49,895 nucleotides of DNA from positions 1-49,895 of the forward strand of contig JWZX01003403.1 of assembly GCA_001275005.1 (NCBI GenBank), in the 5' to 3' direction. The position numbers were made by a program, and so were the translations under genes. This document shows positions 3,710 through 46,504 of this stretch, piece after piece. Within the stretch, counting starts at the first letter, position 1. Every line of letters begins with the position of its first letter. Under the pieces are notes generated by a model. That model did not search any database and was not told the origin of the DNA. It saw only the letters and a program-made list of their open reading frames with translations. This stretch comes from Chrysochromulina tobinii (taxonomy: Eukaryota).

Positions 3710-3974
3710 GCCCGCCTGGAATCGGGTTCGTTCACGTACGTCGGGCTCTCGATCCAGTGTTCGCGGTGCAGCCTTACCGCGTCGAAACTGCACAAAAAGA
3801 GGCAAGTTTTGGCGAAGTTTACGTTTTGTGAAACGAACCGTCGCAGATTCTGAAGGAACATGTAAGATGCAACCGCACTTCCCCGTGCTTCCCCTAACCA
3901 AGAGTTGTAAACTCACAAGACCATCAGGCTCAGTTTTCAGACCGCGGTGCGCGGAGGTCCACGCCCGCGATGTT

Positions 3975-9800: not shown

Positions 9801-12800
9801 GTTCTCCATGACGGCGTCGAAGGCCTGGCCACACTTCTCGAGGAGCATGGGGATGCCCTCTTCCATCGCCTTGGCCATCATGCCGAGGTAGCCTCCGAAG
9901 CTCTGCTGGCACGAGACGAGGCCGTTGGGCGTCTCGCGCCCGCGGATCCAGTTGATGCCCTGCAGCTGTGGGTCGATGATCAGCGGGTAGCGCGCGCAGC
10001 GCACGATGATGGCCGCGTTCTCGAGAGAGAGCCGATCGGACGGCAAACCCTCGGACATCCAGATAGCCTGCGTGGCCACGTCGGAGAGCAGCTTGAGCGG
10101 GTCAAGCACCTCCGCGGACGGGAGCTGGCGGCCGCGCAGGTCGGGTACCCACGTCTGCTCCCACAGCTTGTACCGGAACTCGGAGTTGAACGGCCCAATG
10201 TACGCAATGAAGGGCGCGGCGACCATCATGTTGCCCACGAGCATCGCCTTCTCCTCACCGAGGAGCTCCACGTTGGCGGCCCAGCGGACGCCCTCGTCCT
10301 TGAGGCCGTTGACGAGACGCTCGGCGAGGGAGAGCTTCTTAGCGGTGGCCGCTGCCTTGGCGATCAGCGCGTTCTTCTCCTCAGTCGCCTGCATCAGCTG
10401 GTTCTGCAGCGCCGCCTTGCGCGCGTTGAGCGCGTCCACGTGCTCGTTGACTGCGGCGAGCTTCTTGTTCGCTTCGCCGAGCTTGTTCATCGCCTCCTGC
10501 AGCAACCCACGCTTGGGCGCCACATCGAGGTAGATGTCGTGGTAGATGAGGATGTTGACTACCCAGTCGCAGAGGCCGGCCGCCGCCATCGAGATGCGCT
10601 TCACGTTCGTGTAGTTGAACTCGGGGTTGGGCGCCTCCGGAGTGCCTGTGCACTTGGCACGCACCTCGGCCTTGTTCTCGAGCAGCAGGTTGTCCTTGTC
10701 GAAGTTGATGAGTGATTTGAGGAACTCGTCGACAGACGCCATCATTTTCTTCGCCTCGCCCCATGCCGTCTTGACCTTCTTGACCTGCCCCTTGGGCGCC
10801 ATCATGTACTGCACCGCGTTGCACACCTGCAGCACCACGGGCGAGGGCGTCGACATCGACTTGAGCTCGGTGAGCGACGCCTTGTCGAGCGAGTTCAGCG
10901 CCTCGGCCGCCGCCGCGATGGCGGGCTCGGCCGCCAGCAAGTCCGCATTGCACTGCGCGGCAAAGGCCGAGACCTCCTGCTGGATGACGGCCACCTTCTC
11001 GGCCTCGATGGCGCCGAGGGCCGCCTGCTCGTCCGCGACGGTCGACTCCTGGCCCACCTGCACAAGGAGCACGTCCGTGTCCGCCTTCTTCTGCTCCACG
11101 ATAACGGACTCATCCTTGAGCACGATCTGCATCTCGGCCACCTGCGTCGAGGCGCCGCGCAGCTTGACGAGGCCGCTCTCGAGGCGTATCTTCATGGCAT
11201 CCACGCGGTCGCACTGGGCCTTGTAGAGCGTTTGGTAGAGCTGGATGAGCTCGAGGTAGCTCTTGGGGGTCGTGTACACGTTGCGCCGCTCCGCGGCTAA
11301 GTAAGTGGTGCAGCACTCCTCGACGGATTGGTGCACGAAGCTCATGTGGTGCGCCACATTCTCCTTGAGCTCGTCCGTCGAGATGTCGACGTCCTGGAGG
11401 AAGCGCATCGCCACCGAGATGAGCGCCTCGCTCGGCCACGGGTGGAACCAGTCGATGACCGTGGCCGAGATGAGCGCGGGGAACTTGCGGCACCGGTTGC
11501 GGAAGGCGTTGCCCACAGGCGACATGCAGAGCACCACGTGCAGGTTCTTGCGCACGCGGTCAAGGAAAAAGTTCCAGCAAATGTCGGGTGAGTCCATGAG
11601 GCCCGCCGCCTTGACCTCGGGGCGGATGCCGTTCAAGACGTTATCCTTGTCGTCCTGCGTGTACAGGTCGGGGATAAAGCCGCTCGAAAGCAGGTCGTTG
11701 AAGTAGATGAGCATGCGCTCGTTAATGATCTGCTGGTCGGTGAAGAGCCACACGATCGAGTTGCCCTTCAGACCCGTGGACGCGTAGAGCGCGGCGATAT
11801 CTGCCTTGAAGTCGATCATACCGTAAGCCGAAGTGAGCTTAATCTGGAAGACGGTGAAGCCCGAGATGAAAGCGGCGAGCCGCGTGAGCGACTGCTTGCC
11901 GCTGCCGCCCACGCCCACGAGCAGCGCGTTGCCTCGTGGTGTGTCGATGATGCGCGAAATGCGGGACACGTGCTCCATCGCCTGCACGAAAAGTACAAGG
12001 TCCATGCGCGCAAATGTCTCGTTGTACTCGGTGAGTTTCTGCGTGAGGATCTTGGAGAGCTTCACCTCGTCAGGGACCTGGAAGTAGGGCTTGATGTCCT
12101 CGTCCGTCTGCACCGCAAAGTAGGTGAAGACAATCGGCCGCTTCATCAGCGCGTCCTGGTCGAAGTCCTCAAAGAAGCTCTTGGCGGCGCGGTTGATCAT
12201 GTCCTCGAAGCGCGTCGCGTCGGCGACGTCGACGAGCCGATCGCTGTAGACGCGGTACGACTCGTGCAGCCAGAGGCGCGCGAGGTACATGGGCTCCGTG
12301 TAGTAGTCGGGCGTGCACTTGAGAATGCCCTGGAAGACGCGGCTCATCTCGCGCAGGTTCCACGCGTAGTGGAAGGCGACGGCCGTCGGCATGAATGCGT
12401 CGGCCACGAGCTTGTGCAGCATGAGCGCCGCGCTGCACACACGGTCGCCCACTTTCCTCATCTCCTGCGAGTAGCCGTTGGATAGGTGGCCGTCGAGGAT
12501 TGAGCCGTAGATTGTGCGCAGCACCTCTGCCTCGGGCGCGAGAGTCGCGAAGGTGGCAAAGTGGCGCTGCATGCGATCCTGAATGAAGAAGGAGCCCGCA
12601 GTCGGGTTCATCGAGCTCAGGTACTGCACACCGCGGATCTCCTTCATGGTGAGCTTCTTGAGGTCGTAGAAGCCGCCATACTCAAGCTGCTGGTTCAGTA
12701 GGGCGATAGCGGACTGCGTGCTGTATTTGTCGGGCGTGGGCATGTTCATGTCGTCCACAAAGTAGATGAGTTTCTTGGTGCCCGGCGGCGCAAACATAGT

Positions 12801-15800
12801 GCCAGTCTTCTTCTCGAGCGGCTGCTCGAGGATAGCCTGAAGTATGCTCGCGATGGTGAAGGAGTTGAGGTTGATGTTGAAGTAGATGATCTCCTCGGGC
12901 AGCCGGCCGAGCTTGTCCTGGATGATGGTCGTCTTGGCCGTGCCCGCGCCGCCCACGAGCATCACGGGCTTCGCACGCGTCGCGAGATCGTCGATCAGGA
13001 AGGTGAGGCGCGTCGTGTCGAGCGTAGGCACCACGATGGACGAGAAGGAGGCGCCCTCGCCTGACACGTGCGTGTACTTGGGGATCACATCGCGCCAGTG
13101 CTTGCCCTTCTTGTCGACATCGTCGATGAAGTAGTCGAAGACCAGGCCCTCGTCGGGGAACTTGAAGTTCATCTTGCCCCACTCCATGCGCCACCACTCG
13201 GAGAAGAGTTTGCGGAAGTCGTTGGCCTTGTCCGCGCCAAACGCGCCACCAAAGGCCCAGATGGCCGCAAACTGGAAGTAGGCTTCGTACACGTCCTTGT
13301 CCGTGCCCTGCGGCACGTTCTTCGCGGTGAGCACGCCCTCGAGGATCGAGCAGAGCGTGGACACCATGCCGAAGTTCATGAGCGGCGTGAGGTGCATCCA
13401 TTTGTTCTTGCGCATGTTGTCAAGCGTGGGCGGCACGTACTGCTGCACGAGCGCCTCGAGCCACGCCTGCTCCTTGGTGTCGATGTGGGCGTTCTTGGCG
13501 CACAGGTTGTCCACCCACGACTGGAAGTAGGCCCCCCAGCCCACGTCGGTCTCGTTGAGGAAGAGGACGCCGGCACGGCTGACGGTCGCGGGTGAGCCGT
13601 TCTTGAGGTTCGAGATCTCGAAGATGAGGCGCATCGAACGCGAGAGCGGGATGCGCTCATTCGAGACAAGTGTGAGCACCTTGTTGTCGTCCATGACGGT
13701 GTTCATCGACTCGATCCACTCGGCATCGATGTCGCCGTCGAGCATCACCCACTTGGGCACATTGAGCTGCGCGCCTGACGCGTTCTTGAAGTCGCGCATG
13801 ATCTTGGCAATGATGCCGTCAAAGGGCTCCTTGGTCACCGGGTGCACGAAGCCGTAGAGGTCGTCCGAGGTGACCGCCTTCGGGTTGAGCGCGTTGACGA
13901 GTGTGGGGCCGTCGCCGACTGCTGGTGTGCGCGTTGCCGGGTTTATGGCGAGGTGGGTCTGCGCCGCCTGGAGCGTCTTCCACACGCACGTCTTGCCCGA
14001 GCCGGCGCAGCCGAGCGCGAAGACGCAGTGGCGAATGCCGAGAAGCTCAGCCAGGTCGACCGTCTTGCCGACAAAGATGTCCTCAGGCTGGAGTTGAAGC
14101 CCCTCCTGGTACCCGTTCTTGATGAAGACCTTGTTCTCCTTGAGCACATCCCTAACGGCTTTAGTCATGATCGGGTCGGCCTGCTTGGTCGCGTCTTGCA
14201 TCTTGGGGAAGATGTCGTTGACGAGGCCGAGGAAGATACCCACGTCCGCGTTGACAAACTTGGTCACGTTCGAGTCGCGCAATGCACGCATCATGATCTC
14301 AAGCTCGGTGCGCTCCGGGTTGGCACGCTTGGCGCCACCAGCGATGCGCAGGATGCCCTTGATCGCGCGCAGGCCCCAGTCGTAGTGGTCCTGCTTAGAG
14401 AGCAGCTCCATGTTGAGCTGGAAGAGGCGAATGAACTTGATCGAGAGCACCTTGGCCGTCTCGAAGCCCTCGGCCGAGAGCTCGATCTCAATGATGGCCG
14501 CAAAGTCGGGCGTGCACATAGCGACGCCGCGGAAGAGCGCCTTGAGGTTCTCGGGCAGCTCGGTGCGCCCTGCGTAGCCCGGGTTCATCGTAATGAAGGC
14601 ACCCACAGTGCGCTTGAGGGCAATCTTCTCCTCCTCGAAGATGATGTCGTCTGCAACGGCCTTGATGCCGTCGAGAAGAGCGCCGTACTGGCCGGCGACC
14701 ACCGAGAGCACCTCGACAGGGATGCGGTTGAACTCGTCGAAGCAGCCCCACGCGCCCGTCTGAGAAAGCCCCATGAAGATGTTTGCCATCGTCTTGTAGT
14801 TCATTTGGTCGGAGCAGTTCATCACGATGACCCAGATGGCGAGGCCGCGCCCGAGATCCTTGGTCGTTTCGGTCTTGCCCGTACCCGCAGGGCCCGCGGG
14901 TGCGCCGCCAAGGCAGAGGCGGAGCGCTTGCGTGAGCGTGATGTAGCAGCGGTCGGTGAGGCCGGTGATCACTAGGCGGCCCGGGTTGCCCACGTACTCG
15001 TACGAGTACTGGAACTCGGCGTCCGAGATGTTGATCATGCAGTGGCTCTTCTCTTCGTCCCATCGGAACTTGAGCTGCGATTGCCACGCAAAGTCGCCCG
15101 CGGTCTCGATACGCTCCGCAATGTACTTGAGCACGACATCGCGCGCATGCACCTCGATGGTGATAAGCGTCTTGACCTTGGTGCGCATCTCGCCGGTCAT
15201 CTCGCCGAGGACCATCTGCACGTACACGTTCAGGTTGGCGATCTGGGCCACCGAGTACTCCTTCATTCCCTGGTCGTTGCCCTGCTCAAGCCGATCAAAG
15301 GCCTGGTACACCTCGGTCGACCACCACGTCTGGCACGTGGTGATGGCGAGCTGCGCGCAGTACTTCTCGCACCACGTCTCGCGCGACATCTCCGTGTACT
15401 CGTTGATGGACATCTCGAGTTGGTCCTTGAACTGCATGTTGCAGTGCACCATGATTTCCTTGAGCCAGTCCTCGACGGGCCCGCGGCAGTCGAGCTCCTT
15501 GGCAAAGTGCACCTCCTCCTTGTCCGTGGCGAACATGCCCTTGCACACGCCGGTCTCCAGCTTGGTCTCGGGATCCCTCTCCCACATGATGCCGCCGATG
15601 CAGTCGGTGAACTTAGAGAAGTGCTCCTGCACGGCGGGCGGGAACTTGCCCTTGGAGAGCGTGTCGACGAGGTCGACCTGCGAGATGAAGTAGAAGCGCG
15701 GGAACTTGCGACGCTTCGTCTCGAGGTAGTCGGAGAGCGAGCGGTTGCACAGCTCGAGCGCGGCGAGGGCGACCTTGAAGGCCTCGTCACGTCCATCCTT

Positions 15801-18800
15801 GAGGGTCGCATCGAGAGGGTTGGTCGAGTTGCACGCGTCCGCCATCTGCTCCTTGAATGAGGCGTCGATACCGTCGAAGCGCTTGGCATCCTCGGGTAGC
15901 TGCTCACGGATGTCCTCAGAGCCGATGAAGATGGCCTCGAGGGAGCACCACTGGCGCTGCACCTCGAGCCAGTTCTCGAGCACCGCACGGCACTGCGAGA
16001 GCTTGCCCTTCCACGTGGTGATCTGAATCTCGAAGAAGGCCTTGAACCGGTTGCCCATCATGTTCTGCAGCTGGACCTCGTGGTCGTCGAGCGACTCGAT
16101 GGTGGTGTCGGGCATTTTGAGCACCTTGACGCCGGACGACTTGAAGGGCTCGTACTCGAATTGGAGCGCGTTCCAAATCGTCTCGATGCGCTGCAGCGCC
16201 TTGTCGATCTTGATCTCCATGCGCGCCTGCTCGACGACCTCGCCCACCGGGTCGGCGAACTTGTGCAGCTCGAGCGAGAGCAGCACGCCGAGCGACATCT
16301 TGTCGTCCATGACGAACGTCTTGCCACAGATGCGCATGAGCTTCTTCCAGTGGCGCTCGCGCATCGCGTCGTCCCGCAGGTCCTGCACGAGCGGCAAGTC
16401 AATGAGCATGTCAGCCATCTCCTTCATCATGCCCAGGTAGCAATCCCATCCTCGCACGGGCCGGTCGAGCGCCTTGATCTCCTTCTGGATCTTCGAGCAC
16501 ATGATCATCATGCTGTCCACGTTGACATCGGGCCAGAGCGTCGCCTTCCACGAGTTGAAGATTGAGTTGACGAGCTCGACGTGGTCCCAAACCTTCTTGA
16601 GCAACTTCAGCTCGTCGCGGCACACCTTGATCTCCTTCCAGTTCTCCTTGTTGACATCAAAGAGACCCTGGCGCTCCTGCAGCGACTTGGCGGCATTCTC
16701 GATTTGGTCGATCTTGGTGTTCCACTCGTCGACTTTCTTGTAGCAATCCTCACCAACCGAGTAGTTGAAGGGCGCCTCCTCCTTGAAATCCGCACGGAAC
16801 TCAACCACTTTGTGCCCAAACTCCTCGGCCTGCTCCTTGATCTTCTCGGCCTGCAGCGACTGCAGCGGCGCGAGCTGTTCGCGCGAGTTGTACGTGATGC
16901 GCGTGGTGGCGTTCCAGCCGTGCGGCGCATCGTCCATCATCTCGATGAAATCCTGGGAAATGATCACGCCGTACTTCTTGAGCAGTTGCACCTTGGCGCG
17001 CAGCGGCTCAAACATCCCCGTGACCAAGTCGGCGCGCAGCCGCACGTCGCGGATGCACGTCATCGCGCGCAGCAGCGCCTCGGCATCATCGGGCTCGACC
17101 TCCTGCGAGAGGCCCTTCTTGATGGCGACCATAAAATCTTTGAGCTCGGTGAGGGTCTGCTCAATCGAGGACTGCAGGTAGCTAGTGTAACGGAACTGCC
17201 ACTTGTTGACCCAGGTGGCGAGTGCCTGTTTGACCGGCCGGGCATCGATCTTGAGCCAGCCACGCGCAGCACTAGAGGAAATCGCCTGAATGTTGCTCGC
17301 GTACTTGACAAACTTATGAATCTCTTTGTCGAAAGCGTCGAGCGGCGGTTCGTACTTGGGCGCGAGCGGCCCCTCAATTTTCTCGACGACCTCCTCCTCC
17401 TCGGCCTTGGGCTTGGAGGGATCCTCCTCGGGAGGGGCAAGGAACTCGTGGAGGTGATCGTCGATGCTCGACGTCCACACCGCTTTGTATGCCTGGAATG
17501 AATCCTTGAATTCCTCGCAAAGCGCCTGGTTGGCGCGGACATGCGCCTGGATCTGGTGCACGAAGAAGCGCACTTGCTCCGTCTCCATCACCTCCTTGAG
17601 GAAGTCGCCGTCGGCGCGGTCGAGCCGCTTGACCAGCTTGCACACATTGAAGAAGCCCATGCACCAATAATCGATCATCGCGTGCATCGAGGGCTTATCG
17701 CTGCCACCACTCGCGTTGTGAAGGGCGGGTTTGAACTCGATGCTCGACCCGTCGAGCTCGAGCTGGATCTCGATGAAGGGGGCAATTTCCTCCTTGGTGA
17801 TCTGCGCCGGGTCGAGCTGCGTGTTGAGGCACTCGAGCGAGCCGCAAACGGTGCGCGCGAGGCCGTCGATGACGATGTCGTTGATGAAATCGACGTACGC
17901 GCGCCACGTGGGCGCGCCCTTGGAGACCTTGAGCACCTGGTTCGACTTGAGGAGCATCTTGTGGATCTCTTTGCCCTCGTTGCCGATGTCGTTGTAGCGC
18001 GCGGCCAGGTGCCCCTTGAACTCCTCCTGGTAGTCGTCGGGCGAGTAAGTCTTGGTGCTCTTGCGCTTGAGAAGCGGCTCCTTGAACCATCCGGCGAGCA
18101 CGTTCTGGATGTCTTTCATGTTCGTCTTGAGCGCGAGGAGCGTGTCGTACGTGTCCTTGACGAGGGTGGTCGTCTCGCGCACAAAGTCGTCGATCCCGTG
18201 GCTCTTCCAGGTCAGGTTCTTCTGCCCCTTCTCGAGCGCCCTGTCGATCATCTTGAGCTGCGCAGCAAGCAGCGGCTGCTCCACCTCGAGCATCGTGTGC
18301 ATGATGTGGTTGTACTTGTCCGAGATCACCTGCAGGCAGCCGCGCTGCACGCGGTACGTCTCTGCCTTTTTGTTGAGCTCGAGCGCTGACGCAGGCGCGC
18401 CCTTGCCCAGCTCGAGCAGGTACTTGACCTCGCGCAGCAGGCGTATGAGCTCTGGGTCGAAGTTGACGGCGAGCAGCCCTTTCTCATCGCGCCGGAGGAT
18501 CGGATTCTTGAGGTTGGCCTGTGAGACATCCTCGACGCCCTTCTCCCAGCTTGAGTGCACTTCGTGCGCATACTTATCGAGCGCCTCGATCAGGTTGCCG
18601 TACGTCTTCATCACATCCTTAGCCTCCTCCGACTCGAGCATCGTCTTGAGCGTCGCCTTGAGCTTGAACATCGGCTCCTCGATCCGGAGCTTGAGGCCCT
18701 TGACCCAATAGATGGCGCCCGCGACGGGCGGCATGTTGCAGTAGAGCGGTGGTCCCTCGCGCTCGAGGTAGAATCCCACGGCTGACTGGTCCTTCTGACG

Positions 18801-21706: not shown

Positions 21707-24700
21707 ATGGCCACCCTGATCGACCTGAGCCTAGACACCGACGAGCCGGAAGCCGAGCAGCAGGGAGTCCTGTTTGTGGAAGGACGTAACGAGCCTATCA
21801 AGTTTCCTATCCACCTCGGCCCAGCAAATGCATTGCGAGAGGCGGGGGCTTTTCTTGACGCATGACCTGTATGACATGGATGACAACGAATATCGACGGC
21901 CGCTTCCTGAGTCTCAGCAGAGGTGGGTGCTAGCCTCGCGCGGCACATCAACAATCGTGGGAAGCTGCGTGGCCGCGTGCACATCTGCTCCACCCCGCGC
22001 CTGCTCCACCTGCTCCTTTAGCGTATTGAGCGCCACCTCCTTCTAACAGGGGCCTCGACATGTACGTAGCCAAGGCTCGTACTGTCGGGGGGTCCGGACA
22101 TGCAGCTCAAGCAGCTGTGTCCGGAGGAAGCTCTTCATCCAGTGCGAGCGCCACTCCGCCAGGCAGCACCATCAAGTCGACAGTTCGCATCCCACCGAGC
22201 GTCGAGGTCACGACGAATACGGTGCGTGGCATCTTTACCGTTCGCCAAGCCCTCGGAGAGATTTTTGACAACCCGATCGGTGCGCCGCTGCTACGCACTC
22301 GCGCTCGCACGCAGCTGCGCGACACGCACTTGGGCCCCCACTCGTTTTCTGCACGCATTCGCACCCCAGCACCTCTCCGGTGCCCCGCTCGCTTTGCGCA
22401 GCGTCCCGCCCCTCTATCCACTCAACCTAGCGTGCTCTGCACCTCCCTTGCGCGCAGAGCACGTCATTCGTCGCTGTCAAGAGGATTGCCCTCCGCATTA
22501 TGAGCCGAGGATCGTCCTCCAGATCCATCCAGAGACACTTCGGGAAGAGATCATTCTCAAAGATGGATCTACAGAGGTCCACGACTTCCCCAACGGCCTC
22601 CGAATGCTCGACAATGGAAAGGGCCTCGACGCCGCCGCGTTACTTAATTGGGCCAAAGATGGCAAGTCGCACTCCGCAAAGACGGTGCGCTGCCGACGAC
22701 AAGAGCGTGTGGGGGGGGCACGGCCTGATGAAGCCCTCTCCTCAGCTCAGCCTTCTCGGTGGCTGGCCTGCTCACCTGATGGCCGAGCTCATCAGCTCAC
22801 CTGCTGACCGGGCTCGCGTGTGCCTCGCCCTCGCAGCGCGCCGTCGACGTGCGCCACCGCTCCTTCTTCTCAGGCGCGCTTGGGGAGTATGGCGTGGGCG
22901 AAAAGGGCGGGAGCGCGCGCCTCGCCGACGAGACGGGGCGTGTGCGTAAGGTGTCTGGGCCGCTCCAGCAACTGTGCTCGATTGAGAAGCAAGAGTACGC
23001 GACAATGAAGCAGAAGGACGAGAGCTGGAACCCTAGCGCTCACGATCACCTCAAGTACCGCAACTTCCGCGAGCCCGCGATCGAGGAGGTAATGAGCCGC
23101 TATGCGGGATGGGGCGAGCTCATCACGTGCCTCGAGGTGGCGTCCCTTGCCAAGGAGGCGCTCACGTCGTTGAGCGACCTCGACGGACTCGCCAACGAGC
23201 TCTGCCAGCTCTACTATCCCTTCCTTGTGCCCCGCCCTGGATCGGAGACGGCGGAGGCGCAACATCTGGATCACCGGCTGCTCGAGCACCTACTGCCGCT
23301 CCCTGCTGACTGCCTTTCCGATTGGCAATCACTGCCGATGATCCATGTGTCGATCGAGGTCTGGACGCACGGGCGGTTGGTGAGTCTCATCAATCTTAAC
23401 GAGCGCATCCTTGAAGAGGGATACATCTCCAAACTCTTCAACGCTCGCCAAATGGCGGCCGCGGCGTGCGCGGCGGAGCCCGCAGCTGGCTCCTCTTCGA
23501 CACAGCGTGAGGGGCCTCCATCGCTCCAGAACAAGTTCATCCGGGGGGTGTACACCGCCGGTGACAAGAAGGGCTCGTACTTGCTTTGTGCGACCTACTA
23601 CCCATACTCGAGGGGGCAGCCCTCGATACCTGACTGTGGGGAGACTGAGCTAGGTGGCTCCTTCGACGTGATGCTCAATGGGCGGCGCCTCCTCGGTGAA
23701 GACCTCAAGACGCTCCCGTTTTGCGAGAGCGAGCAGGCCCGCATGCTGCTCCAAGCGCAGGGGGTACAGCCCAGCCTCATCAAGGATATTCCGGCGGCGG
23801 TCTGGGGCCGCTGGCACGGCACTCTCTGGCTCAAGGGAGATTGGCCGTTGGACAACTCCAAAGCGTACCTGAAGCACGGCAAGGCGGCGCAACAAGGCGA
23901 CGACAAGGCATCTCTGCTCGTCAAGGAGCTCAAGCAGAAGTACGTCAAGGACAAGGGCAGCGCCACTGCGAGGAGCTCTGGCGGCGGCTCGTCGTCGTCG
24001 TCGATGCCACGCCAGTCCCCGCAGACCATTCGCTCTAAGGAGGTGGAGCTGCAGGACAGGGCGCTTGAGTTCTGTAAGTGGCTAGATGAGTGCCACCGCC
24101 ACTACGACGACGAGGTCGAGTTCCTGTACGACGCTGGGGACGTCGAGCTGGACAAAGAGCGCCCCGGTGACGTCATCTGCCATGGTATCCGACTCAAGGG
24201 CAAGGAGATCAAGGCGCGCAGCAACCGCGCAGGTGGAGGCTCGACGGCGCGCGACAAGGGCATGGCCGTCAAGATCAAGGAGAACCCACGGCTAGTCTCG
24301 AGCGCGACGATCTGGGGTGAGTGTGTCGGCTTCGTCTTCTCCGATAGCTCGATCAACGTGCGCTGGGAGTCCGATCGTCCGATCATCGAAGGCGGCGTGC
24401 AGCGACTGCAAGAGGCGTGCCGGCAGGCGACTACTGGCAAGGTGCGGATCAAACGGATCACGTCGACTCCGCCGCCCGTGCCTGATGACGTGGAGCCGGA
24501 GGAGTTTGAGATCACGTCGATCTTCGACTACCCGAATTCCACGCAGGTCGCGCAGCACTGCCAAGCGACGCAAAGACAGCTGGACAAGCAGAAGCCGAAG
24601 GAGATCTGCTTCAATGACGAGGTCGACAGGTCCCGATACAACTTCTTGCCGCTCACGCGCGACAAGCACGAGAAGGTGGTGCCTCTGCCGCTCGCCCTCG

Positions 24701-27700: not shown

Positions 27701-29103
27701 CTCTCCCAGAGGCGAGTACGCGGCTCAGGAACGTTCTCACGAAGCCGCCCCCGCACGTCACGCTGGCCCTCGACGACGGTGAGCCGCTCGACTACACCGA
27801 AGATGACCTGACGCGCCGGGCGGTGCATCCTGAGGCCACGCTATGCCACGTGGCTCAGGCCCATGATGGACGCGTGAGCCAGCTGCTCATGGCAATGCTC
27901 GGCGGCGATGTGGCGCTGCTGCGTGGTGACGCCACGGCTGAGCAGCTCGCCAAGCTGGGCAGCCTGCTGCTCTCACGTGCTCAAGCGCCGCTCGGCTTCA
28001 TGCGTGGCCTCGATGCTGCGAAACTCGAGCCAGGCGTGCGGCTCGATGCCGACACGCACCTGCTGGAGATCGACGGCGATGTGCACCCTCCTGATGCGGC
28101 CGCCGCACAAGCCGCCTACCTCGCTAACCTCGTCCATCTCCCCGAGGGCGAGCAGGGCGACGCCGTCCGCTTCGCGCTCTATGGGGCGCTCGGCAAGACG
28201 GTCGCACTGCTCGCGCCAGCGGCCACGGTGAGCGACTTGACGCACTACTCGTTTCGTCACAATCTGCCCGACGTGGTGCTCCTTGGTCCGCACCATGCTG
28301 CTCACGACGACGCTCACGACCTGGGGACGAAAGGGACTGCTACAGAGGCGGCGGGAGCAGCGGCGCCGGCGCCTCCGTTTGTCGCCATCCTACGCGGCGT
28401 CTCGACCTCGATCGTTCGCCTGCCCGTCGCCCGAGGCAGCCTGAGCGCTCTGTCGATCGAGTTGCCCTTGGCCGAGCTCGACGATGTTCCTAGCGGCTCG
28501 GCCGCTGCTTCCGACGCCGCCGGCGCGCAACTCATCAGCGAGATCGACGAAGAGGATGATGAGGACCAGATTGAGATTCGCATGCTGCACACGGCGGCAG
28601 CAGCCAGCTTCGGCGCGCCCGCTAGTCAGGCGCCTTCTCTTGATGCGGGCTCGACGCTCACCCAAGCCCTCGGCGCGACGGCCCCGGGGCGCGCATGTCT
28701 CGAGTTGCTGCGCGCGCGCCGCGAGCACTGTGCCGCGGCTTCGGAGGTCGTACGACTGGGCAGCGCGCTCACGCCGCTCAAAGAGGAATGTCAATCGATC
28801 CGCCAAGAGCACACGAGAGCGGATGCGCGGGCCTCCGCGATGGCAGCGACGCTCAACGCCTGCCGCAAGCGAATACGCGAGATTGACGAGGCGCACCACG
28901 CGGCCGAGATCGACCGAGATCGACGCGAGATCGATGAGGCGCACCACGCGGCCGAGGCGGGCCCAAGTGAGCTCGAGGCAGCACGCGGCTTCGTGCGCGT
29001 CGCCCACCATGGCGCAGTTGCGAGCGATGGGCAGGTAGTGCAATCGCCGGCCACGCTCGGCAACGGCGAGCCACGTTCCCGCCGCCGCCTCGATCCCGAC
29101 TGA
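21707..29103 (+). CDS. SMCHD1/GMI1-like protein: GHKL ATPase, S5-like domain, long beta-rich linker, coiled coil and SMC hinge (4 exons)
   Basis: Exons are 21707 (or 21828)-21922, 22050-22279, 22458-22684 and 22837-29103. GT-AG introns at 21923-22049, 22280-22457 and 22685-22836 join in frame. GHKL motifs: ALGEIFDNPIE, MLDNGKG, GEYGVGEK. SMCHD1-like blocks: FDVMLNGRRL, RWHGTLWL...DNSKAYL, EFCKWLDECHRHYDDEVEF. Hinge-like LCHVAQAHDGRVSQLLMAMLG...YLANLVHL...VRFALYGALG lies between coiled coils. Start at 21707 needs a 1-nt frameshift near 21844-21848. Confidence 0.8.
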
Positions 29104-29380
29104 TGTGCCGACAGTCGAGTTTCTCGAACCCTCGGGGGCTGCGCAGGGAGCGCCGGTGGCAGTGCCGTGGGAGCCCGGCCCAGCCGACTCTTCGCATGGC
29201 CGTACCGTACATGCACAGTCGGCACAGCAGAAAAGACCTCGTTTGGTTGACGCGCCACCATTCGGTACTAGTAGGCGGAGCTGCTGAGTGCTGTATTGTG
29301 TATTCAGCTGTATTTGCAAGACACTGTCTCGCAAATGGACATCTAGAGTCATATTTTTGTATCGTCGTGTAACGTGTATC

Positions 29381-29965
29381 CGGCGCTTCCCCACAGGTCC
29401 CTGGCGCCCGGCGCCCCCCCGGGGGTGCGGGTCATTAAGCGGAGTTATATCGACTTATCGTCTGATTAAGTCTGAGCACCGGGCATGACACCGGGACAGG
29501 TGAGGAAGGTGGAAGCCTCAGTGATTAACCGGCCCTCGCGAAAAAGCGCGCGCGCCGTGGGAAAGAGCCGAAGGTACCAAGGCGAGCCGATTGCGAGGAC
29601 GGCGGCCCCGACGGCGGCCCCGGCTCGGAGAGTCACTCTGCCAGAGTCGGAGTTCCCGCCCCGGGCCCCGGGACCAATCCGACTGGGAATGCGACTGACC
29701 GACTGTGCCTCCGGCTACAGGACGTCGGTGTAGGACTTGTAGAGCGACGGCTCGAGCATCTCACGAGAGCCTCTCCTCGCCGTCAATAACTCGCAGGCCA
29801 CCTCGTAAATCGGCGGCGCTGTGTGCGAGACGTAGCGCGCGTAAACCTTCTTGATTACAAATTAAAGCGTGTCTGTGTTTCATGTAGTTTACATGACCAG
29901 TAGATAACTAAAGTGTCTAAAGTCGAGTAAGACGCTCCTCAAGTACACCGAAACGAAACGAAACG
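29381..29965 (+). mobile_element. Candidate non-autonomous retroelement or structured RNA ending in a (CGAAA)3 tail
   Basis: Non-coding block with several stems, an AT-rich 3' part and the terminal short tandem repeat cgaaacgaaacgaaacg (29949-29965). Boundaries are approximate and no TSD was found. Confidence 0.35.
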
Positions 29966-30041
29966 ACAAACGGGAGCGGGAAGCCGGCGGTAGCTCTTTA
30001 CACACGTCACATGTGTGTATTCTGAGCGGGCATTAAACAGT

Positions 30042-30069
30042 GCCGTAGCACCGGTTGTCGCGTCTGTCG
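30042..30069 (+). promoter_or_regulatory. Dispersed 28-bp upstream element, copy B (42 nt before FKBP ATG)
   Basis: gccgtagcaccggttgtcgcgtctgtcg is the exact reverse complement of the + strand copies at 20662 and 36129. Confidence 0.6.
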
Positions 30070-30111
30070 CGTTAACGTTTACACGCAAAAAAAGGTTGTT
30101 CACAGGGCACG

Positions 30112-31749: not shown

Positions 31750-33288
31750 TCACCCCATTGTGCAGCCCTTCGAGTGCGCTGTACGGAAGTCATACTGGTG
31801 GATCCAAAAGTTGGCGCCATATTTCTCGCCGAGCAGCACGGGCAATGCCTCGTGGTGTGTGCGCGTGTCGATGTTGTTGGGCGCATCAGCGAGGACGGAG
31901 GGCCACAGGACCGCCTTCCCCTTCTCGGGCTTGAAGGTGACGGGCGGCTTGAGGTCAGTGAACTTCGTGCCGCCACCGGCGCCCTCAGGAAGGTCGTTGA
32001 GGTACATGAACATGGTGTAGATGCGCACGCCCTGCACCCGGTGGCGGTCGCCGTCGATGTAGTCCGAATGGCGTTTATAGAAGGCGCACGATGGATCGCG
32101 CTCGCTCGGGCAAGCATGGTAGTAGACGAGCTGTGCGAACTCGGCGTTCGCCACAGGGGTTTGTGTGACGTCGCTCACACGCTGCTGCACGGCCTGCACG
32201 AGCGGGTCGTTCAGGCAGCTTCGCTCCTGGCACCACGTGTGGCGCGAGGTGCGGATCTCAGTCTTCACGTCCGTCATCTTGCCATCGGCGGAGAAGCCGA
32301 CGCCCCGTGACTCCGTGTACTTGCCCTTGCCGTGTCCGATGAAGGCATCCGCCTCGGCGTCGCTCAGGAAGGCGTGGAAGAGCACCACGGGCGGATCGTT
32401 CGAAATGAGCTCCGGCTTCAGATCGCGAAACTCCAACATGACGCGTTCAAAGGTGGCGTTCATCATACCGGGTGAGAGAGCGGGCAGCATAGAAGCATCG
32501 CGCGGGCAGCGCACGTTGTACTCGGCCAGCGAGGCCGCGAGCTTCTTCTCCTGCGCCGCGCGCGCCTCGGGCGAGCACGAGTAGGCGCAGCTGCGGTACA
32601 TGAAGCCCTTGTTGATCTCGCACTCCCCCGAGGCAGCCCAGGCGATGCACTCGCCAGGCTCCTTCCACGAGTCAACGAGCTCGCCCGTCGAGCTCGTGCG
32701 TGCCGCGTCCGCGCGCTCGCATGTGACCTTGCACTTGGCTCGCATAAACTCCGGGTTGGCGGTGCACTCGCCCTGCTTCGCCCACCCGGCGCATTCCTTG
32801 TCCTCGCCCTCGGCCGCAGCATTCCAGTTGTGGCCCGTGAGGCTGGGCTTCGCCGCCGAGGCAGCCTCCTCGCCGGCCGCGCTCGTCGGGAACTCCCACT
32901 GCGTCTCGCGCGTCGCGGTCTTAAAGTAGTATGTCTTTCCGCTCGTCGGATCCGTTGCCGAGCCCCAACCCTGTGGCAGCTGGCCGCTGGAATTCTCCGT
33001 CTTGGATGACGCATCTCGCCCAGGTGGAGGAGAGTCTCGACGAGGATGTGCCGCGTCTCGCCGCTGCGCTGCATCGGTCCGCGGTGACTGCGGTGCCTGC
33101 CCGCTCCTGGAGACAAATGCAATGCCAGCAGCCACGAGGACGACGACCGGCGCGGCCCACAGCATCGTCTTGGCAACGTCGGCGCGCTTTCGGCTGGTGC
33201 CCACCTTCTTCTTCGACGGTGGAGCGGCCGAAACTCCATCGGCCGGAACTCCGTCGGCCGGTGTTCCTGAGCTCTTCTTCTTTGCCAT
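31750..33288 (-). CDS. Prolyl 4-hydroxylase with N-terminal TM anchor, WW domain and two ShKT domains
   Basis: TM: MLWAAPVVVLVAAGIAFVS. WW: LPQGWGSATDPTSGKTYYFKTATRETQWEFP. ShKT: ECAGWAKQGECTANPEFMRAKCKVTC and ECIAWAASGECEINKGFMYRSCAYSC. P4H motifs: RTS, HSD, RIYTMFMYLND, GGGTKF, HEALPV, GEKYGANFW. Confidence 0.9.
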   Translation of the reverse strand: MAKKKSSGTPADGVPADGVSAAPPSKKKVGTSRKRADVAKTMLWAAPVVVLVAAGIAFVSRSGQAPQSPRTDAAQRRDAAHPRRDSPPPGRDASSKTENSSGQLPQGWGSATDPTSGKTYYFKTATRETQWEFPTSAAGEEAASAAKPSLTGHNWNAAAEGEDKECAGWAKQGECTANPEFMRAKCKVTCERADAARTSSTGELVDSWKEPGECIAWAASGECEINKGFMYRSCAYSCSPEARAAQEKKLAASLAEYNVRCPRDASMLPALSPGMMNATFERVMLEFRDLKPELISNDPPVVLFHAFLSDAEADAFIGHGKGKYTESRGVGFSADGKMTDVKTEIRTSRHTWCQERSCLNDPLVQAVQQRVSDVTQTPVANAEFAQLVYYHACPSERDPSCAFYKRHSDYIDGDRHRVQGVRIYTMFMYLNDLPEGAGGGTKFTDLKPPVTFKPEKGKAVLWPSVLADAPNNIDTRTHHEALPVLLGEKYGANFWIHQYDFRTAHSKGCTMG

Positions 33289-33470
33289 GCACTCTCACGA
33301 CACGGATCGCACGAGCGGAAATGTGCTTGCAAAAGATTCACGCCATGCAGGGCATCGTGAGGCGCTCGGATTTGAATGGGGAAAGGGTTCACTATTGGAT
33401 TCGGTGTCCGCGAGTAGCACTCGACGTTTCACGGGGTCTTCGGGACATTTCCAAGTCTTTGCGGGACGCA

Positions 33471-34247
33471 ATGGCCGCCTCTGGCGGCCGCGGCATCTGG
33501 CTCGCCTTCGCAGTTTCAGCTGTTGCAGGATTGGTGGCCGTGCCGGCGCCCAAGTTCACCTCGGCCATGACGCTGGCGGTGGCGCCGCGAGCCTTCATCT
33601 TCCTCCAGTATGGCGGACAGAATGGCTACGGCGGCTACGGTGGCCAGCAGGGGTACGGCGGCTCTGGCAGCCCGCAGGGCTACGGGCCGCAGCAAGGATA
33701 CGGCATGTCGGCTCCGGGTTACGGCACCCAGCAGGGCTACGGGATGGGCGGTCAGGGTTGGCATTTGGTGCCTCGCGGCGGCGTGGCGGGAGTTCTGAGG
33801 ACAGACCACACGGTGCCATTTGGCGGACGGCAGGTGCTGGGTCGCTACGACATGGTGGAGCAGCTCGGGCAGATGCTGACGATCTCACGGGAGCAGTGCA
33901 TCGTGCAGGTATCGCCCGACGGCATGGCCATGCTCACCTCGATGGGCAAACCTCCCACGGGCTGGAAGCAGGGCCGTGAGTTTCCGTGGCAATGGCTGCA
34001 GAGTGGGCAATCCGTTCAGCTCGCGCCCGGGAATAAGATCAGCTTGGACGCGGCGAACCCCGAGGAGGCTGTCTACATCTGCCAGCTAGTAGGCACCGCC
34101 GCCCCTCCCGGAGTGGACCCAGGCTACGGTCAGCAGGGCGGCTACGGTGGTTACCCGCAACAGGGCGGCTTCGGTCAGCAAGGGTACGGTCAGCAGGGCT
34201 ACGGTCAGCAGGGCTACGGTCAGCAGGGCGGCTACCGAGGCTACTAA
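33471..34247 (+). CDS. FHA-domain protein flanked by G/Y/Q-rich repeats, with hydrophobic N-terminal targeting peptide
   Basis: ATG at 33471 (MAASGGRGIWLAFAVSAVAGL). FHA-like VLGR...ISREQCIV...LTSMGKPPTG...LAPGNKISL. GYGQQ/GYGGY repeats on both sides. Confidence 0.75.
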   Translation: MAASGGRGIWLAFAVSAVAGLVAVPAPKFTSAMTLAVAPRAFIFLQYGGQNGYGGYGGQQGYGGSGSPQGYGPQQGYGMSAPGYGTQQGYGMGGQGWHLVPRGGVAGVLRTDHTVPFGGRQVLGRYDMVEQLGQMLTISREQCIVQVSPDGMAMLTSMGKPPTGWKQGREFPWQWLQSGQSVQLAPGNKISLDAANPEEAVYICQLVGTAAPPGVDPGYGQQGGYGGYPQQGGFGQQGYGQQGYGQQGYGQQGGYRGY

Positions 34248-36021: not shown

Positions 36022-36128
36022 TTCAAAGAATTCCTTGCAGGGAGAGAGGGGCCGATTGGGCCGCAGATTTCTCCGAGGTGTTGTCGGTTGAGGAATTCGA
36101 TACTTTGTCCGTGTGAGCTTTATAAACA

Positions 36129-36156
36129 CGACAGACGCGACAACCGGTGCTACGGC
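36129..36156 (-). promoter_or_regulatory. Dispersed 28-bp upstream element, copy C (upstream of 2OG oxygenase ATG)
   Basis: Identical core to copy A; the flank ctgtt..tgcccgctc is shared with copy B. Confidence 0.6.
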
Positions 36157-36274
36157 GCTGTTACTGCCCGCTCGAACGTGTGGCCTGGGAATGGTGGCGC
36201 GTGCAAAATGACGACATCAGTCATCTCGGTACAACTGTCACGGCCGTGCATGCGCGCGAAAGTGCGTGTCTACA

Positions 36275-38113
36275 TCACCAGAGGAGCTTCTGCAGATCGG
36301 CGAGCTGCCCGGGACGGCGCGAGTCATTATACTCACGGTTGAGGAGCCCGTACCACTCATCGTCCCACTCCTGTGTCTCGTTCTTCCACCTGTCGCCATT
36401 GTACGGCCAGTACGCGAAGTCAAGCTCATACTCCTTCATGAAGCGGAGCATGTGAGCCCAGTACGTGCCCGCAGCGCCGCGCGTCTTTCTGTCATCATAG
36501 TCGGCGCCCGCGCCAAACTCGCCCAGCCACACGGGCGTGTTGATGCCCGCGTTGACGAGCCACTTGCTCGCCAGCTCATCGTGGAACATCGAGTACTTGC
36601 CCACGCGCAGCGACATGTTGAGGATCACCGCGCCCCCGCCGATGATCACGAGCGCCATCAGCAGCGCGTTGAGCCACATGCAGCAGTGCCACCAGCGCCG
36701 GCGGCGCAGGCGGGGATGCGCCCCAGATTTGCGAGTCGGATTCTCCATTTCCATTCCGTAGTAGCCATCACTCACGAACGCATTGAGTAGCGACGGACCG
36801 CCAGTGCCTCCGACAGAGCCGCCGGATGTCGCGCACGTGAGAGAGACGCCGCCTGGCTGAGAGGCAAGCCAAGCTGCCTCGGCCCGCAGCTCAGCGACGC
36901 GCGGCGCTTGCATGCGGAAGCAGCCCCACAAGGCGATCGCGAGCACGAACAGCACGCCCGCGCCCCAGAACAATCCGATCGCGACCATGCGGAATGCCTC
37001 ACCTTCGACATTGGCGGCAGCGCAGCCCGCGAGCTTGTAGCCGAAGTCCCAAATGTATGTGGCGCAGAGCTCGAGGGCGATGGCACCCACGGTACACCAG
37101 CCACTGAGGGCAAGGCATACGAACGCACCGTCGGTGCGCATCGTCGCCCGGTAAGGCACGCCGCGAGTGCACAGGAGTACGTGCAGCAGCAGCGGCAGCA
37201 GGAAGGCCATAGCGATCACTGTCAGACGCGACACGTCATCCCAGTTAATCCCAAAGTTGTCCTTGAGGAGCTCGTCAAGTTTGTACCACCAGCGCGCAAA
37301 GGAGTAGAAGTGCACCGTGTACACGAGACGACTCGGGTCGGGCAGCTCGGGTGGCGCCGCGTGCAGTCGCCGCAAGTCATACGACGAGCACAGTCCAGAG
37401 ACGACCACAAGCATCTCAGGGGCTACCTCGTGGAGCTCACGAGCAGCTGCCTCGGTGGCGACCTTCCAGTCGGTGCGAATGTCGGATGAGGTGCCCCATG
37501 TGATCGTGCGCGTCGGCGTGTCGTGGATCTCGTTGCGCAGGTCGAACGCAACCACGCGCCGGTCGTGCGCGTACCGGCGAGCGACTGCGCCCACTGAGAG
37601 GAGCCACGTGGTCGCATTGTAGGCGGGGTTGTCCCAGATGCCCTCCTCCGAGTCATGGTCACAGCACCAGCCCGCTGTGCTCGTGTGGTCGTTCAGCAGG
37701 ATGAGCAGCCCCGCGCTCGTGAGCGCGCTGATCGTCTTGTCGAGCAGCTGCATGCCCGACAGCCCGAGGGCCTGTAACTCGGGGTTGGCGGCGAGCGCAA
37801 AGGCGGGCACGGGCGGGTCTTTGTACCACAGGTCGATGGAGATGGGCATGCGCACGCAGTTGAAGCCCCAATCCGCAATGCGCTCGCTCAGCTCCACGAG
37901 TGGCCGCTTGTGCAGGCCGAAGACGGAGTATAGCTCCATGTGCGCCCCGTACCAATTGACGCACCTGAGCTGGACCTTGGTTCCGTTTCGGTCCACGATG
38001 TTGCGGCCAGAGGTGCCGAGCGGCAACCGATCCAACGCAATCAACTTGGAGTTCGCCGCCGCTGCAATGGTCAGCAAAGTCAGCAAAGACAACTTGTCTC
38101 CCTCGTGTTGCAT
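36275..38113 (-). CDS. Glycoside hydrolase family 5 with internal 4-TM insertion
   Basis: VNWYGA, GFNCVRMP, LNDH, acid/base FDLRNE, VHFY, nucleophile VWLGEFG, FAYWPYNG. N-terminal signal-like stretch. Four hydrophobic segments lie between HFY and WLGEFG. Confidence 0.88.
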   Translation of the reverse strand: MQHEGDKLSLLTLLTIAAAANSKLIALDRLPLGTSGRNIVDRNGTKVQLRCVNWYGAHMELYSVFGLHKRPLVELSERIADWGFNCVRMPISIDLWYKDPPVPAFALAANPELQALGLSGMQLLDKTISALTSAGLLILLNDHTSTAGWCCDHDSEEGIWDNPAYNATTWLLSVGAVARRYAHDRRVVAFDLRNEIHDTPTRTITWGTSSDIRTDWKVATEAAARELHEVAPEMLVVVSGLCSSYDLRRLHAAPPELPDPSRLVYTVHFYSFARWWYKLDELLKDNFGINWDDVSRLTVIAMAFLLPLLLHVLLCTRGVPYRATMRTDGAFVCLALSGWCTVGAIALELCATYIWDFGYKLAGCAAANVEGEAFRMVAIGLFWGAGVLFVLAIALWGCFRMQAPRVAELRAEAAWLASQPGGVSLTCATSGGSVGGTGGPSLLNAFVSDGYYGMEMENPTRKSGAHPRLRRRRWWHCCMWLNALLMALVIIGGGAVILNMSLRVGKYSMFHDELASKWLVNAGINTPVWLGEFGAGADYDDRKTRGAAGTYWAHMLRFMKEYELDFAYWPYNGDRWKNETQEWDDEWYGLLNREYNDSRRPGQLADLQKLLW

Positions 38114-38316
38114 TTCCACTTGTTCCAGACTCGTTCCAAATTAGGTTAGTTTGTTAAGTAGCCAGCGTTTCAAGCGCTTTCTACCTGTGAAGAGCCTTCT
38201 GCGTTCCTGTTAGTTCTTCAATGCATGCAATTTTACAGTTATCGACCGAATCTATTTGCCTGAGTTTTGCAAATCGTCGACTTGGAGTCGTAGCGTAGAG
38301 CTTCCGACTTGTGTGT

Positions 38317-45791: not shown

Positions 45792-46275
45792 CCGGACTGG
45801 AGAGCGGCTGAATCAGGGGCTGATTTTCATCCTGGACGGGGCGTACCTCTAGATGGTGGCTTGTGTCTGCTAGTACAGTATAATTCTTGACCAAACACTT
45901 CAAGTTTCGTCTTAGAGTCTGGACCCTGAGCCACAGGCGGATTTGCCTTTGATTTGGGCAATTTGGGCTCGAACCTCGAAGGGAAAAGGCTCCTTCGGCT
46001 TCGTGGCTTATGGCCGTCCCGGATCGGATCCTAGACCGCTCTTGGACGTCCAATGTTCCAATCACACTCACACCCGCCGGACCACCCGAAACGGACGGTC
46101 CATCAGCATCAACATCGCGTCGAGACCTCGCCTCACGGCATGCGCGAATGGCCGTGCTTGCGTCGCACCCGTGGCACAGACCGCGACCGGCGGGCGGCGG
46201 CGGCGTGGGGCGCGCTGGGTGTGACCGCGCCACCGCAGGCTCGCCGGCCGATCTGCGCCGACGGGGGCGCTTTGC

Positions 46276-46504
46276 GCCCACTACAGCGCCTTGAGCAGTC
46301 GGGATGGGGCGTCGATGTGCCCACTACAGCGCCTTGAGCAGTCTCTCGAGTACGAGCTGGGAGGGATGGGGCGTCGAGGTGCCCACTACAGCGCCTTGAG
46401 CAGTCTCTCGAGTACGAGCTGGGAGGGATGGGGCGTCGAGGTGCCCACTACAGCGCCTTGAGCAGTCTCTCGAGTACGAGCTGGGAGGGATGGGGCGTCG
46501 AGGT
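46276..46504. repeat. Tandem repeat: three 62-bp units plus one internally deleted unit, overlapping the THOC5 stop codon
   Basis: gcccactacagcgccttgagcagtctctcgagtacgagctgggagggatggggcgtcgaggt at 46319, 46381 and 46443; 43-nt variant at 46276. Confidence 0.92.

Follow-up and report, generated by a model that had tools for sequence, protein, structure and literature searches.

An expressed four-exon gene of the haptophyte Chrysochromulina tobinii that probably encodes a divergent SMCHD1/GMI1-family protein

Introduction

Does a unicellular haptophyte encode a full-length protein of the SMCHD1/GMI1 type, in which a GHKL ATPase is joined to an SMC hinge, and what might such a protein do? Fusions of GHKL+S5 with a hinge are described in passages of PMC2292703 as an ancient eukaryotic lineage. 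The locus considered here lies on the forward strand of C. tobinii contig JWZX01003403.1; the window is the whole 49,895-nt stretch analysed, and all coordinates are positions on it. A sequence-only reading of the window had proposed such a gene and had called the family uncharacterized in haptophytes, which stands within the literature searched: no publication there pairs SMCHD1 with haptophytes. The main text of an SMC-evolution preprint (10.1101/2024.01.07.573240) leaves SMCHD1, GMI1 and DMS3 unmentioned. The gene adds a new member to a family already known as ancient, and the advance is modest because the fusion has already been called so. What is added is an expressed, full-length and very divergent SMCHD1/GMI1-type gene that gene callers fragment, and a culturable unicell carrying the protein would make it possible to study whether the family's role before X inactivation lay in silencing or in repair. 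The account that we favor, as somewhat the likelier outcome, is that this expressed four-exon gene encodes a divergent member of the SMCHD1/GMI1 family, likely a two-ended clamp that would compact and silence chromatin.

Gene model and transcripts

The gene consists of four exons (21707-29103, forward strand) and is transcribed and spliced, as seen in RNA contigs.

21707..21922, forward strand: exon 1, with ATG at 21707; each half aligns with the beginning of relative P0037
21923..22049, forward strand: intron 1, 127 nt, GT..AG, skipped in RNA contigs of X14, X15 and X17
22050..22279, forward strand: exon 2, set by RNA joints, carrying GHKL motif I
22280..22457, forward strand: intron 2, 178 nt, GT..AG, skipped in X15 and X17
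22458..22684, forward strand: exon 3, set by RNA joints, carrying GHKL motif II
22685..22836, forward strand: intron 3, 152 nt, GT..AG, skipped in X15 and X17
22837..29103, forward strand: exon 4, 2,088 codons plus stop, set by RNA joints

The junctions proposed from sequence (21922/22050, 22279/22458 and 22684/22837) are each matched exactly by RNA contigs, with intron 1 absent from contigs in three of the four RNA runs and introns 2 and 3 in two of the four. Contig 22 of X17 (7,286 nt, poly(A) library) spans 21751-29395 across all three joints; this single 7.3-kb contig contains the small exons joined to the large one, as had been anticipated, and together with the 2,312-residue frame it places the ATPase and the C-terminal part in one transcript and one frame. 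Contig 16 of X15 spans 21690-26248. An alternative donor for intron 1 at 21927 was dropped, as the RNA uses 21923.

In the window, the frame from ATG 21707 meets a stop near 21863. The window has one extra base at 21844, with five G against four in RNA contigs of X13, X15 and X17; four G are also present in all four DNA contigs covering the site (L001-L004). Because RNA and DNA contigs agree on four G, the extra base is an assembly error in the window and not a broken gene, and its removal gives a protein of 2,312 residues. The introns and motif assembly of the earlier spliced model stood; exon 1 as written, which does not read through, did not. Independent support for the spliced frame comes from P0037, whose ATPase region has no introns and which gives an alignment of 602 columns at 33% identity (E 6e-74). 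Automatic annotation had been expected to miss the ATPase, and it does so in three database records: P0003 and P0004 start no earlier than motif III, and in P0033 exon 3 is read within an intron-derived ORF.

The ATPase module

22258-22272, forward strand: GHKL motif I (E-I-F-D-N, residues 142-146) in exon 2, from E142 to N146, with an unusual Pro next
22610-22624, forward strand: GHKL motif II (D-N-G-K-G, residues 200-204) in exon 3
22885..22899, forward strand: GHKL motif III (E-Y-G-V-G, residues 241-245) in exon 4, followed by a conserved Lys
23365..24114, forward strand: predicted S5/transducer domain of SMCHD1 type, from Pfam PF22899 and profile alignment to 6MW7

Splicing brings motifs I-III, from exons 2, 3 and 4, into one frame, as the sequence-only reading had it, and the spliced protein keeps all three motifs, the catalytic Glu and Asn and the switch lysine. 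The counterpart of motif III in relatives is FGVGSK or YGLGSQ, and the residue after the motif I Asn is Pro here versus Ala in relatives. K566 (23860-23862) aligns with the SMCHD1 switch lysine K525, given a deduced numbering offset. The S5-like region was recognized by Pfam SMCHD1_S5 (PF22899) with E 9.5e-5 and 22.7 bits, under the cut-off of 27, and six of ten relatives also matched this model below the cut-off. The HATPase_c_3 cut-off was passed by relative P0043 (30.4 bits versus 25); exons 2 and 3, scanned singly against Pfam, gave no match. Profile A1 against the PDB ranked 6MW7, the SMCHD1 ATPase module, first of four matches (E 0.31), with the SMCHD1-type S5 motifs aligned, and phmmer searches of the PDB with exon 4, P0037 and P0035 gave no relevant match.

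The fold was assessed on a predicted model of the relative P0037 (mean pLDDT 56.6), in place of the window's own spliced protein. Foldseek returned 6MW7 as the best match of this model (E 1.7e-11), and VIA aligned 306 residues of it with 6MW7 (Z 18.0, rmsd 4.3), ahead by 4.3 of the next structure (Z 13.7); MORC3 scored 12.0 and MORC2 11.1. An Atlas search with the ATPase/S5 part gave unnamed clusters (0.91) and HATPase_c_3 (0.89), which we treat as a lead only. The earlier assignment of the module to the SMCHD1/GMI1 type is well supported by the profile ranking and by the predicted fold of this 33%-identical relative.

The predicted protein resembles vertebrate SMCHD1 in its order of parts (N-terminal domain, GHKL, S5/transducer, long β-rich linker, coiled coil, globular domain and coiled coil) and in motifs I-III, with Glu and Asn four apart, and the switch lysine. 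It differs in length (2,312 residues versus 2,005 in human SMCHD1), in sequence (~15% identical residues when the structures are aligned) and in the Pro after the motif I Asn. MORC2 (5OF9) and MORC3 (5IX1) share the GHKL+S5 module, but score lower against the P0037 model (Z 11-12 versus 18 for SMCHD1) and have neither the long β linker nor a hinge. Canonical SMC proteins may be alike in hinge and flanking coiled coils, but according to PMC7458401 they combine a split ABC ATPase with a centrally placed hinge that carries GX6GX3GG, neither of which is seen here; the ATPase type here is GHKL, as the structural match of P0037 indicates. DMS3 is hinge-only and, unlike this gene, has no ATPase. Arabidopsis GMI1 is alike in that a GHKL module is fused to a C-terminal hinge (PMC5651269, in part), the hinge here being a candidate.

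The same family and anatomy would also suit a mainly GMI1-like protein, acting in double-strand-break repair and homologous recombination and not in silencing. To our knowledge a unicellular alga has neither X inactivation nor imprinting, and those SMCHD1 roles are inapplicable to it. As the same GHKL-hinge fusion, GMI1 is linked to break repair in passages of PMC5651269, and human SMCHD1 is reported to go to breaks as well (PMC4004971); silencing and repair are not mutually exclusive. The S5 region, however, is matched by a Pfam model built on SMCHD1 and by the SMCHD1 structure, a weak objection in a comparison that included no GMI1 sequence or structure. We consider a mainly repair-directed protein unlikely, with an appreciable chance of being right.

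N-terminal domain and linker

Exon 1, forward strand: putative N-terminal domain, at the position of the SMCHD1 ubiquitin-like domain
24115..24594, forward strand: BAH-like domain, a label suggested by position alone
24595..27414, forward strand: linker of ~940 residues, probably tandem Ig-like domains, from a repeat motif and Big_6/Big_1 in P0035

The N-terminal segment is conserved and β-rich; residues 1-140 of P0037 were modelled at pLDDT <50. The linker holds four repeats of a D-x-x-G/D-N/S motif, and P0035 gave sub-threshold matches to Big_6 (E 0.011) and Big_1 (E 0.15). The linker is probably composed of tandem Ig-like domains; for the Ig fold that had been read from the sequence, nothing beyond these motif repeats and sub-threshold matches was found.

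Coiled coils and candidate hinge

27421..27631, forward strand: coiled coil 1, predicted by a simple heptad score
27805..28479, forward strand: conserved globular domain, candidate SMC hinge, without GX6GX2-3GG
28687..28960, forward strand: coiled coil 2, predicted by heptad score

P0035 is colinear with the window protein from S5 through the C-terminus, and the candidate hinge is the best-kept region between them (80 of 196 residues identical, 41%). The C-terminal part returned SMC_hinge clusters as 19 of 30 Atlas matches (best 0.91), a match that the tool itself grades as weak (recognition 2166, under 2300; 138 shared features, under 170). This match and the position between coiled coils suggest that the domain may be an SMC hinge. 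Of the coiled coil-hinge-coiled coil arrangement claimed earlier, the coiled coils were borne out by the heptad score and the hinge was not: Pfam SMC_hinge matched neither the window nor four relatives, and the GX6GX2-3GG pattern is absent from the hinge region of the window protein, P0003 and P0065, including the GX6GX2GG form given for the SMCHD1 hinge interface in part of PMC7458401. The lone match to the pattern, early in the domain of P0035, looks like chance. Profiles A2, A3 and A4 against the PDB gave coiled-coil matches only and no hinge, and NCBIfam SMC models contacted only the coiled coils of relatives (4-14 bits). When a four-row alignment of the domain was compared, profile to profile, with SMC hinges of proteobacteria (23 loci, 19 kept after four poorly fitting rows were dropped), no signal rose above shuffled, reversed and other-region controls; the test is weak because these hinges themselves score just 21-53 bits on Pfam.

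A model of the domain from a five-row alignment was of low confidence (pLDDT 35.6, pTM 0.25). Foldseek found nothing for it at E <= 0.001, and VIA matched a helical hairpin only (best Z 9.4, ~80 residues), with DMS3 at rank 6 on those same helices, so that neither search is informative on the hinge. A two-copy prediction of the 225-residue domain scored 0.00, the domain's own fold being uncertain.

These results bear on a second alternative, an SMCHD1-like ATPase whose C-terminal domain has lost or never had hinge function, acting as a MORC-like clamp with a coiled-coil dimer only. The missing glycine motif and the lack of a Pfam hinge match favor it, as do two low-complexity insertions and a loss of ~57 residues that adjoin the domain (the lost segment lies directly before it and is present in three relatives). 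Against it stand the conservation of the domain relative to P0035, its place between two coiled coils and the SMC_hinge clusters. We regard it as improbable.

Proposed mechanism

In the two-ended clamp that we favor, modelled on human SMCHD1, ATP binding would dimerize the N-terminal GHKL+S5 modules, with E142 as base, N146 for Mg and K566 as switch (residue roles as in parts of PMC6620310 and bioRxiv 10.64898/2026.02.05.704097). The C-terminal domain, as a worn hinge, would hold the other end of the dimer, the BAH/Ig arm would serve as the DNA-binding part, and hydrolysis would return the clamp to its starting state; repeats or transposons as targets are a guess. For SMCHD1 itself, a domain order including BAH (bioRxiv 10.64898/2026.02.05.704097), compaction of DNA (bioRxiv 2025.07.08.663435) and, in the human protein, a requirement for LRIF1 in chromatin binding (PMC13434421) are described in passages of these sources. 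Points against the clamp are the Pro that follows the motif I Asn (relatives carry Ala), the need of human SMCHD1 for LRIF1, the weakness of the Atlas match, and the lack of a Pfam SMC_hinge match and of the glycine motif.

Variation between strains

Between strains, GHKL+S5 shows nine synonymous and six non-synonymous changes and, judged by these counts, is under purifying selection. In the BAH/Ig arm a single synonymous change stands against 28 that alter an amino acid, distributed across both lineages; the whole gene outside the arm shows 15 and 18. Relative to L003, the BAH-like domain has no synonymous and seven non-synonymous changes, and the linker (24595..27414) one and 21. RNA editing as the origin of the differences was ruled out, as DNA contigs carry them too.

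A diversifying arm, a conserved ATPase and a lost hinge glycine motif would be expected if viruses or mobile elements antagonize the protein. It is conceivable, and in our judgement rather unlikely, that the protein is a chromatin defence factor in genetic conflict, with its DNA-binding BAH/Ig arm diversifying, its ATPase conserved, its hinge without the glycine motif, and its gene carried in a repeat-bounded block that flips between strains. If the selection signal holds, it would point to the poorly understood linker as a contact surface in host-parasite conflict. A decaying gene or pseudogene, to which the exon 1 frameshift in the window and a whole-gene pN/pS near 1 between strains might point, is very improbable and already largely refuted, since the frameshift is missing from the RNA and from all four DNA contigs, 2,312 codons are open, exonic indels in L003-L006 are all multiples of three (bar base 21844) and GHKL+S5 appears to be under purifying selection.

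Inverted block around the gene

20647..20691, no strand assigned: left 45-nt inverted repeat, bounding the block of ASCH and the SMCHD1-like gene
30040..30084, no strand assigned: right 45-nt inverted repeat, with 96% complementarity to the left copy

The SMCHD1-like gene and ASCH lie within a 9.4-kb block flanked by these repeats. The 27-nt repeat core has no exact match in the viral contigs searched, and the viral contigs and prokaryotic genomes searched hold no close relatives of the protein. In lake contigs L003 and L005 the 9.4-kb block is inverted.

Gene structure

The SMCHD1/GMI1-like gene (21707–29103, plus strand) is real. It comprises a stop-to-stop frame of 2,107 codons at 22780–29103 with short exons upstream, and the three introns proposed from the sequence (21923–22049, 22280–22457 and 22685–22836) are all GT..AG, with their joints present in RNA contigs. 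The window comes from a GC-rich flagellated eukaryote, and the DNA and RNA runs with matches are from freshwater and mixed-culture samples. It may be a haptophyte, as the sequence-only reading took it to be, which would fit the general character of haptophyte genomes. The RNA evidence comes from four of the six RNA runs with matches and consists of contigs, which are informative on joins rather than on expression level; intron 1 is skipped in contigs of three of the four and introns 2 and 3 in two. The small exons are joined to the large one, as the sequence-only reading had supposed: one contig of 7,286 nt, assembled from a poly(A) library, spans 21751–29395 and crosses all three joints. A second RNA contig (4,101 nt) spans 21690–26248.

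The earlier gene model from ATG 21707 does not hold as written in the window, where its frame meets a stop near 21863. One base at 21844 is absent from the RNA contigs of three runs and from all four DNA contigs covering the site (six loci retrieved), and another at 29179 is absent from RNA contigs and from L001 and L002, DNA contigs that are both near-identical to the window. Both are single extra bases of the GC-rich window sequence, located in homopolymer runs, with that at 21844 breaking exon 1, and they indicate that single-base errors recur in this sequence. Once the surplus base at 21844 is removed, a coding sequence of 6,939 nt results, for a protein of 2,312 residues.

ATPase module

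Splicing unites the GHKL motifs as anticipated: motif I (E142 and N146), motif II (D200–G204) and motif III (residues 241–245), the counterparts of which in human SMCHD1 are E147, N151, D184–G188 and Y234–G238 (PMC6620310). When the first 1,200 residues of exon 4 were searched against 1.84 billion representatives, 11 proteins were returned. The related protein P0037, with its entire N-terminal part within one ORF, can be aligned to the spliced product across 602 columns (33%, E 6e-74), both halves of exon 1 included. Another relative, P0043, exceeds the HATPase_c_3 cut-off, and SMCHD1_S5 was matched below its cut-off in six of ten relatives and in the window protein (E 9.5e-5). A profile of the window protein and its relatives placed 6MW7, the structure of the human SMCHD1 ATPase module, at the top with an E value (0.31) that is non-significant alone and with the S5 motifs in register. 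The fold was predicted for P0037 (mean pLDDT 56.6; residues 1–140 unreliable). In Foldseek, the four top rows for this model were chains of 6MW7 (E 1.7e-11), followed by GRP94 (2.3e-9), and in VIA 6MW7 had a Z score of 18.0, the next match 13.7 and MORC3 12.0. K566 aligns with the 6MW7 residue that, by an inferred numbering offset of the chain, is K525, the switch lysine of SMCHD1 (bioRxiv 10.64898/2026.02.05.704097). N146 is directly followed by Pro in the window and in all five covering loci, and by Ala at this position in P0037 and P0043.

The gene adds a member to an already described lineage, the distinct and ancient eukaryotic one in which GHKL and S5 are fused to a hinge and coiled coils (PMC2292703). 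In a searched literature short of most subscription papers, we found no publication on SMCHD1 in haptophytes or Emiliania or on its evolution and homologues in Naegleria, and no paper on the protist range of the family or its origin in the most recent ancestor shared by all eukaryotes.

Linker and candidate hinge

About 1,100 residues C-terminal of the ATPase module are colinear with the relatives P0035 and P0034. Sub-threshold matches and a four-fold repeated motif tentatively suggest that the linker is Ig-like; 'BAH-like' is a label by position. The predicted order thereafter is a coiled coil, a 225-residue domain and a second coiled coil. This domain, conserved in four sequences and the best-preserved region relative to P0035 (41%), is quite probably a worn hinge, judging from its position and the identity of the ATPase. 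In Atlas, SMC_hinge clusters made up 19 of 30 matches of the C-terminal part (best 0.91, short of the values that the tool sets for a secure assignment). Pfam gave no hinge match in the window or in four relatives, and a pattern search of the 225-residue domain did not find GX6GX2GG, the hinge motif of SMCHD1 (PMC7458401). A segment of ∼57 residues just N-terminal of the domain is present in P0003, P0035 and P0065 and missing in the window's species.

Possible function

Human SMCHD1 forms dimers through both its hinge and its ATPase (PMC7458401). By analogy, the favoured reading is that the protein would form a homodimeric clamp, with ends closed at the same two sites. DNA would be bound via the hinge, BAH and first Ig-like domain, which contact it in the human protein (bioRxiv 10.64898/2026.02.05.704097), and would be bridged and compacted under regulation by ATP, as by human SMCHD1 (bioRxiv 10.1101/2025.07.08.663435), the targeting of which requires LRIF1 (PMC13434421). 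The main rival to this reading would be a role in repair like that of GMI1, a repair protein of plants (PMC5651269).

Genomic neighbourhood and inverted block

Features of the window
6834–20591, minus strand: dynein heavy chain gene, upstream; intronless, a single 4,585-codon frame
20647–20691: left 45-nt inverted repeat
20734–21444, plus strand: ASCH-domain gene, transcribed, within the invertible block, upstream of the SMCHD1-like gene
Downstream of the SMCHD1-like gene: FKBP-type gene
30040–30084: right 45-nt inverted repeat, separated from the left by 9,348 nt
31750–33294, minus strand: WW + ShK + 2OG-Fe(II) oxygenase gene
36125–36162: third repeat copy (copies are 38–45 nt)
36275–38140, minus strand: GH5 cellulase-like gene, containing a membrane-like insert
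44382–44554: tandem repeats of 42 nt, probably in an intron of a ketoacyl-synthase-like gene
46260–46505: tandem repeats of 62 nt
48189–49779, minus strand: degenerate repeats spaced at multiples of ∼80–130 nt, resembling a leucine-rich-repeat gene

The ASCH, dynein heavy chain and FKBP-type neighbours suggest no shared pathway. The inverted repeats enclose the ASCH and SMCHD1-like genes. All three repeat copies in the window (0 expected by chance) sit immediately 5′ of gene starts, and many RNA contigs from other places end on the repeat, which indicates that it is dispersed in the genome. In the lake contig L003, window position 30040 is joined to 20649, and the far end of the lake contig L005 matches 20623–20542 (82%); the block is thus inverted in both informative lake contigs, and L001 and L002 have it oriented as in the window. 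The simplest cause would be recombination between copies of this small dispersed repeat, an assembly misjoin at the repeat being a possible source of the L003 arrangement.

Strain differences

Compared with L003, the whole gene has a pN/pS near 1, with nine synonymous (S) and six non-synonymous (N) differences in GHKL+S5. The arm between S5 and the first coiled coil (residues 651–1750; window 24115–27414) has 1 S and 28 N in 1,093 codons and the remainder of the gene 15 S and 18 N (Fisher p 1.2e-4), a contrast whose boundaries were drawn after the list of changes was known. So few S differences in the arm are expected under neutral change with p 0.001–0.003. The same arm has 1 S and 29 N in L005 and 0 S and 16 N over the part covered in L004, also a lake contig; the three are near copies (3–5 differences, all non-synonymous) and are therefore treated as a single comparison. 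When P0003 serves as the outgroup, 11 arm changes fall on the window lineage and 14 on that of L003, with two ambiguous.

Selection on the arm as the source of the N excess is a lead suggested by these counts. However, arm pN (0.011) lies below the neutral level elsewhere (∼0.015–0.02) and one S difference was observed against ∼12 expected, so that the signal is as much a shortage of S as an excess of N. Identity to P0003 is, moreover, almost even across the protein (86–92%; linker 87%), and a similarly N-rich ratio occurs in the neighbouring Gly/Tyr/Gln-repeat ORF 33169 (33171–34244, plus strand; 7.5 S, 28.5 N against L003), where it may be an alignment effect. The other neighbours have S/N counts of 2/1 (ASCH), 7/7 (prolyl-hydroxylase-like gene), 7/6 (ORF 34678) and 0/0 (FKBP exon).

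An 83-nt GT..AG insertion follows window position 27668 in L003 (∼13119–13201) and L005 (∼3654–3736); the window itself, L001 and L002 are without it. RNA contigs with the 12-nt insert of L003 at 27359 lack it, which makes it likely to be a strain-variable intron. Introners have been reported from a Chrysochromulina genome (bioRxiv 10.1101/2022.06.06.494994); those have 4-nt duplications, whereas the insertion here contains short tandem repeats and a 16–18-nt copy of the adjoining exon.
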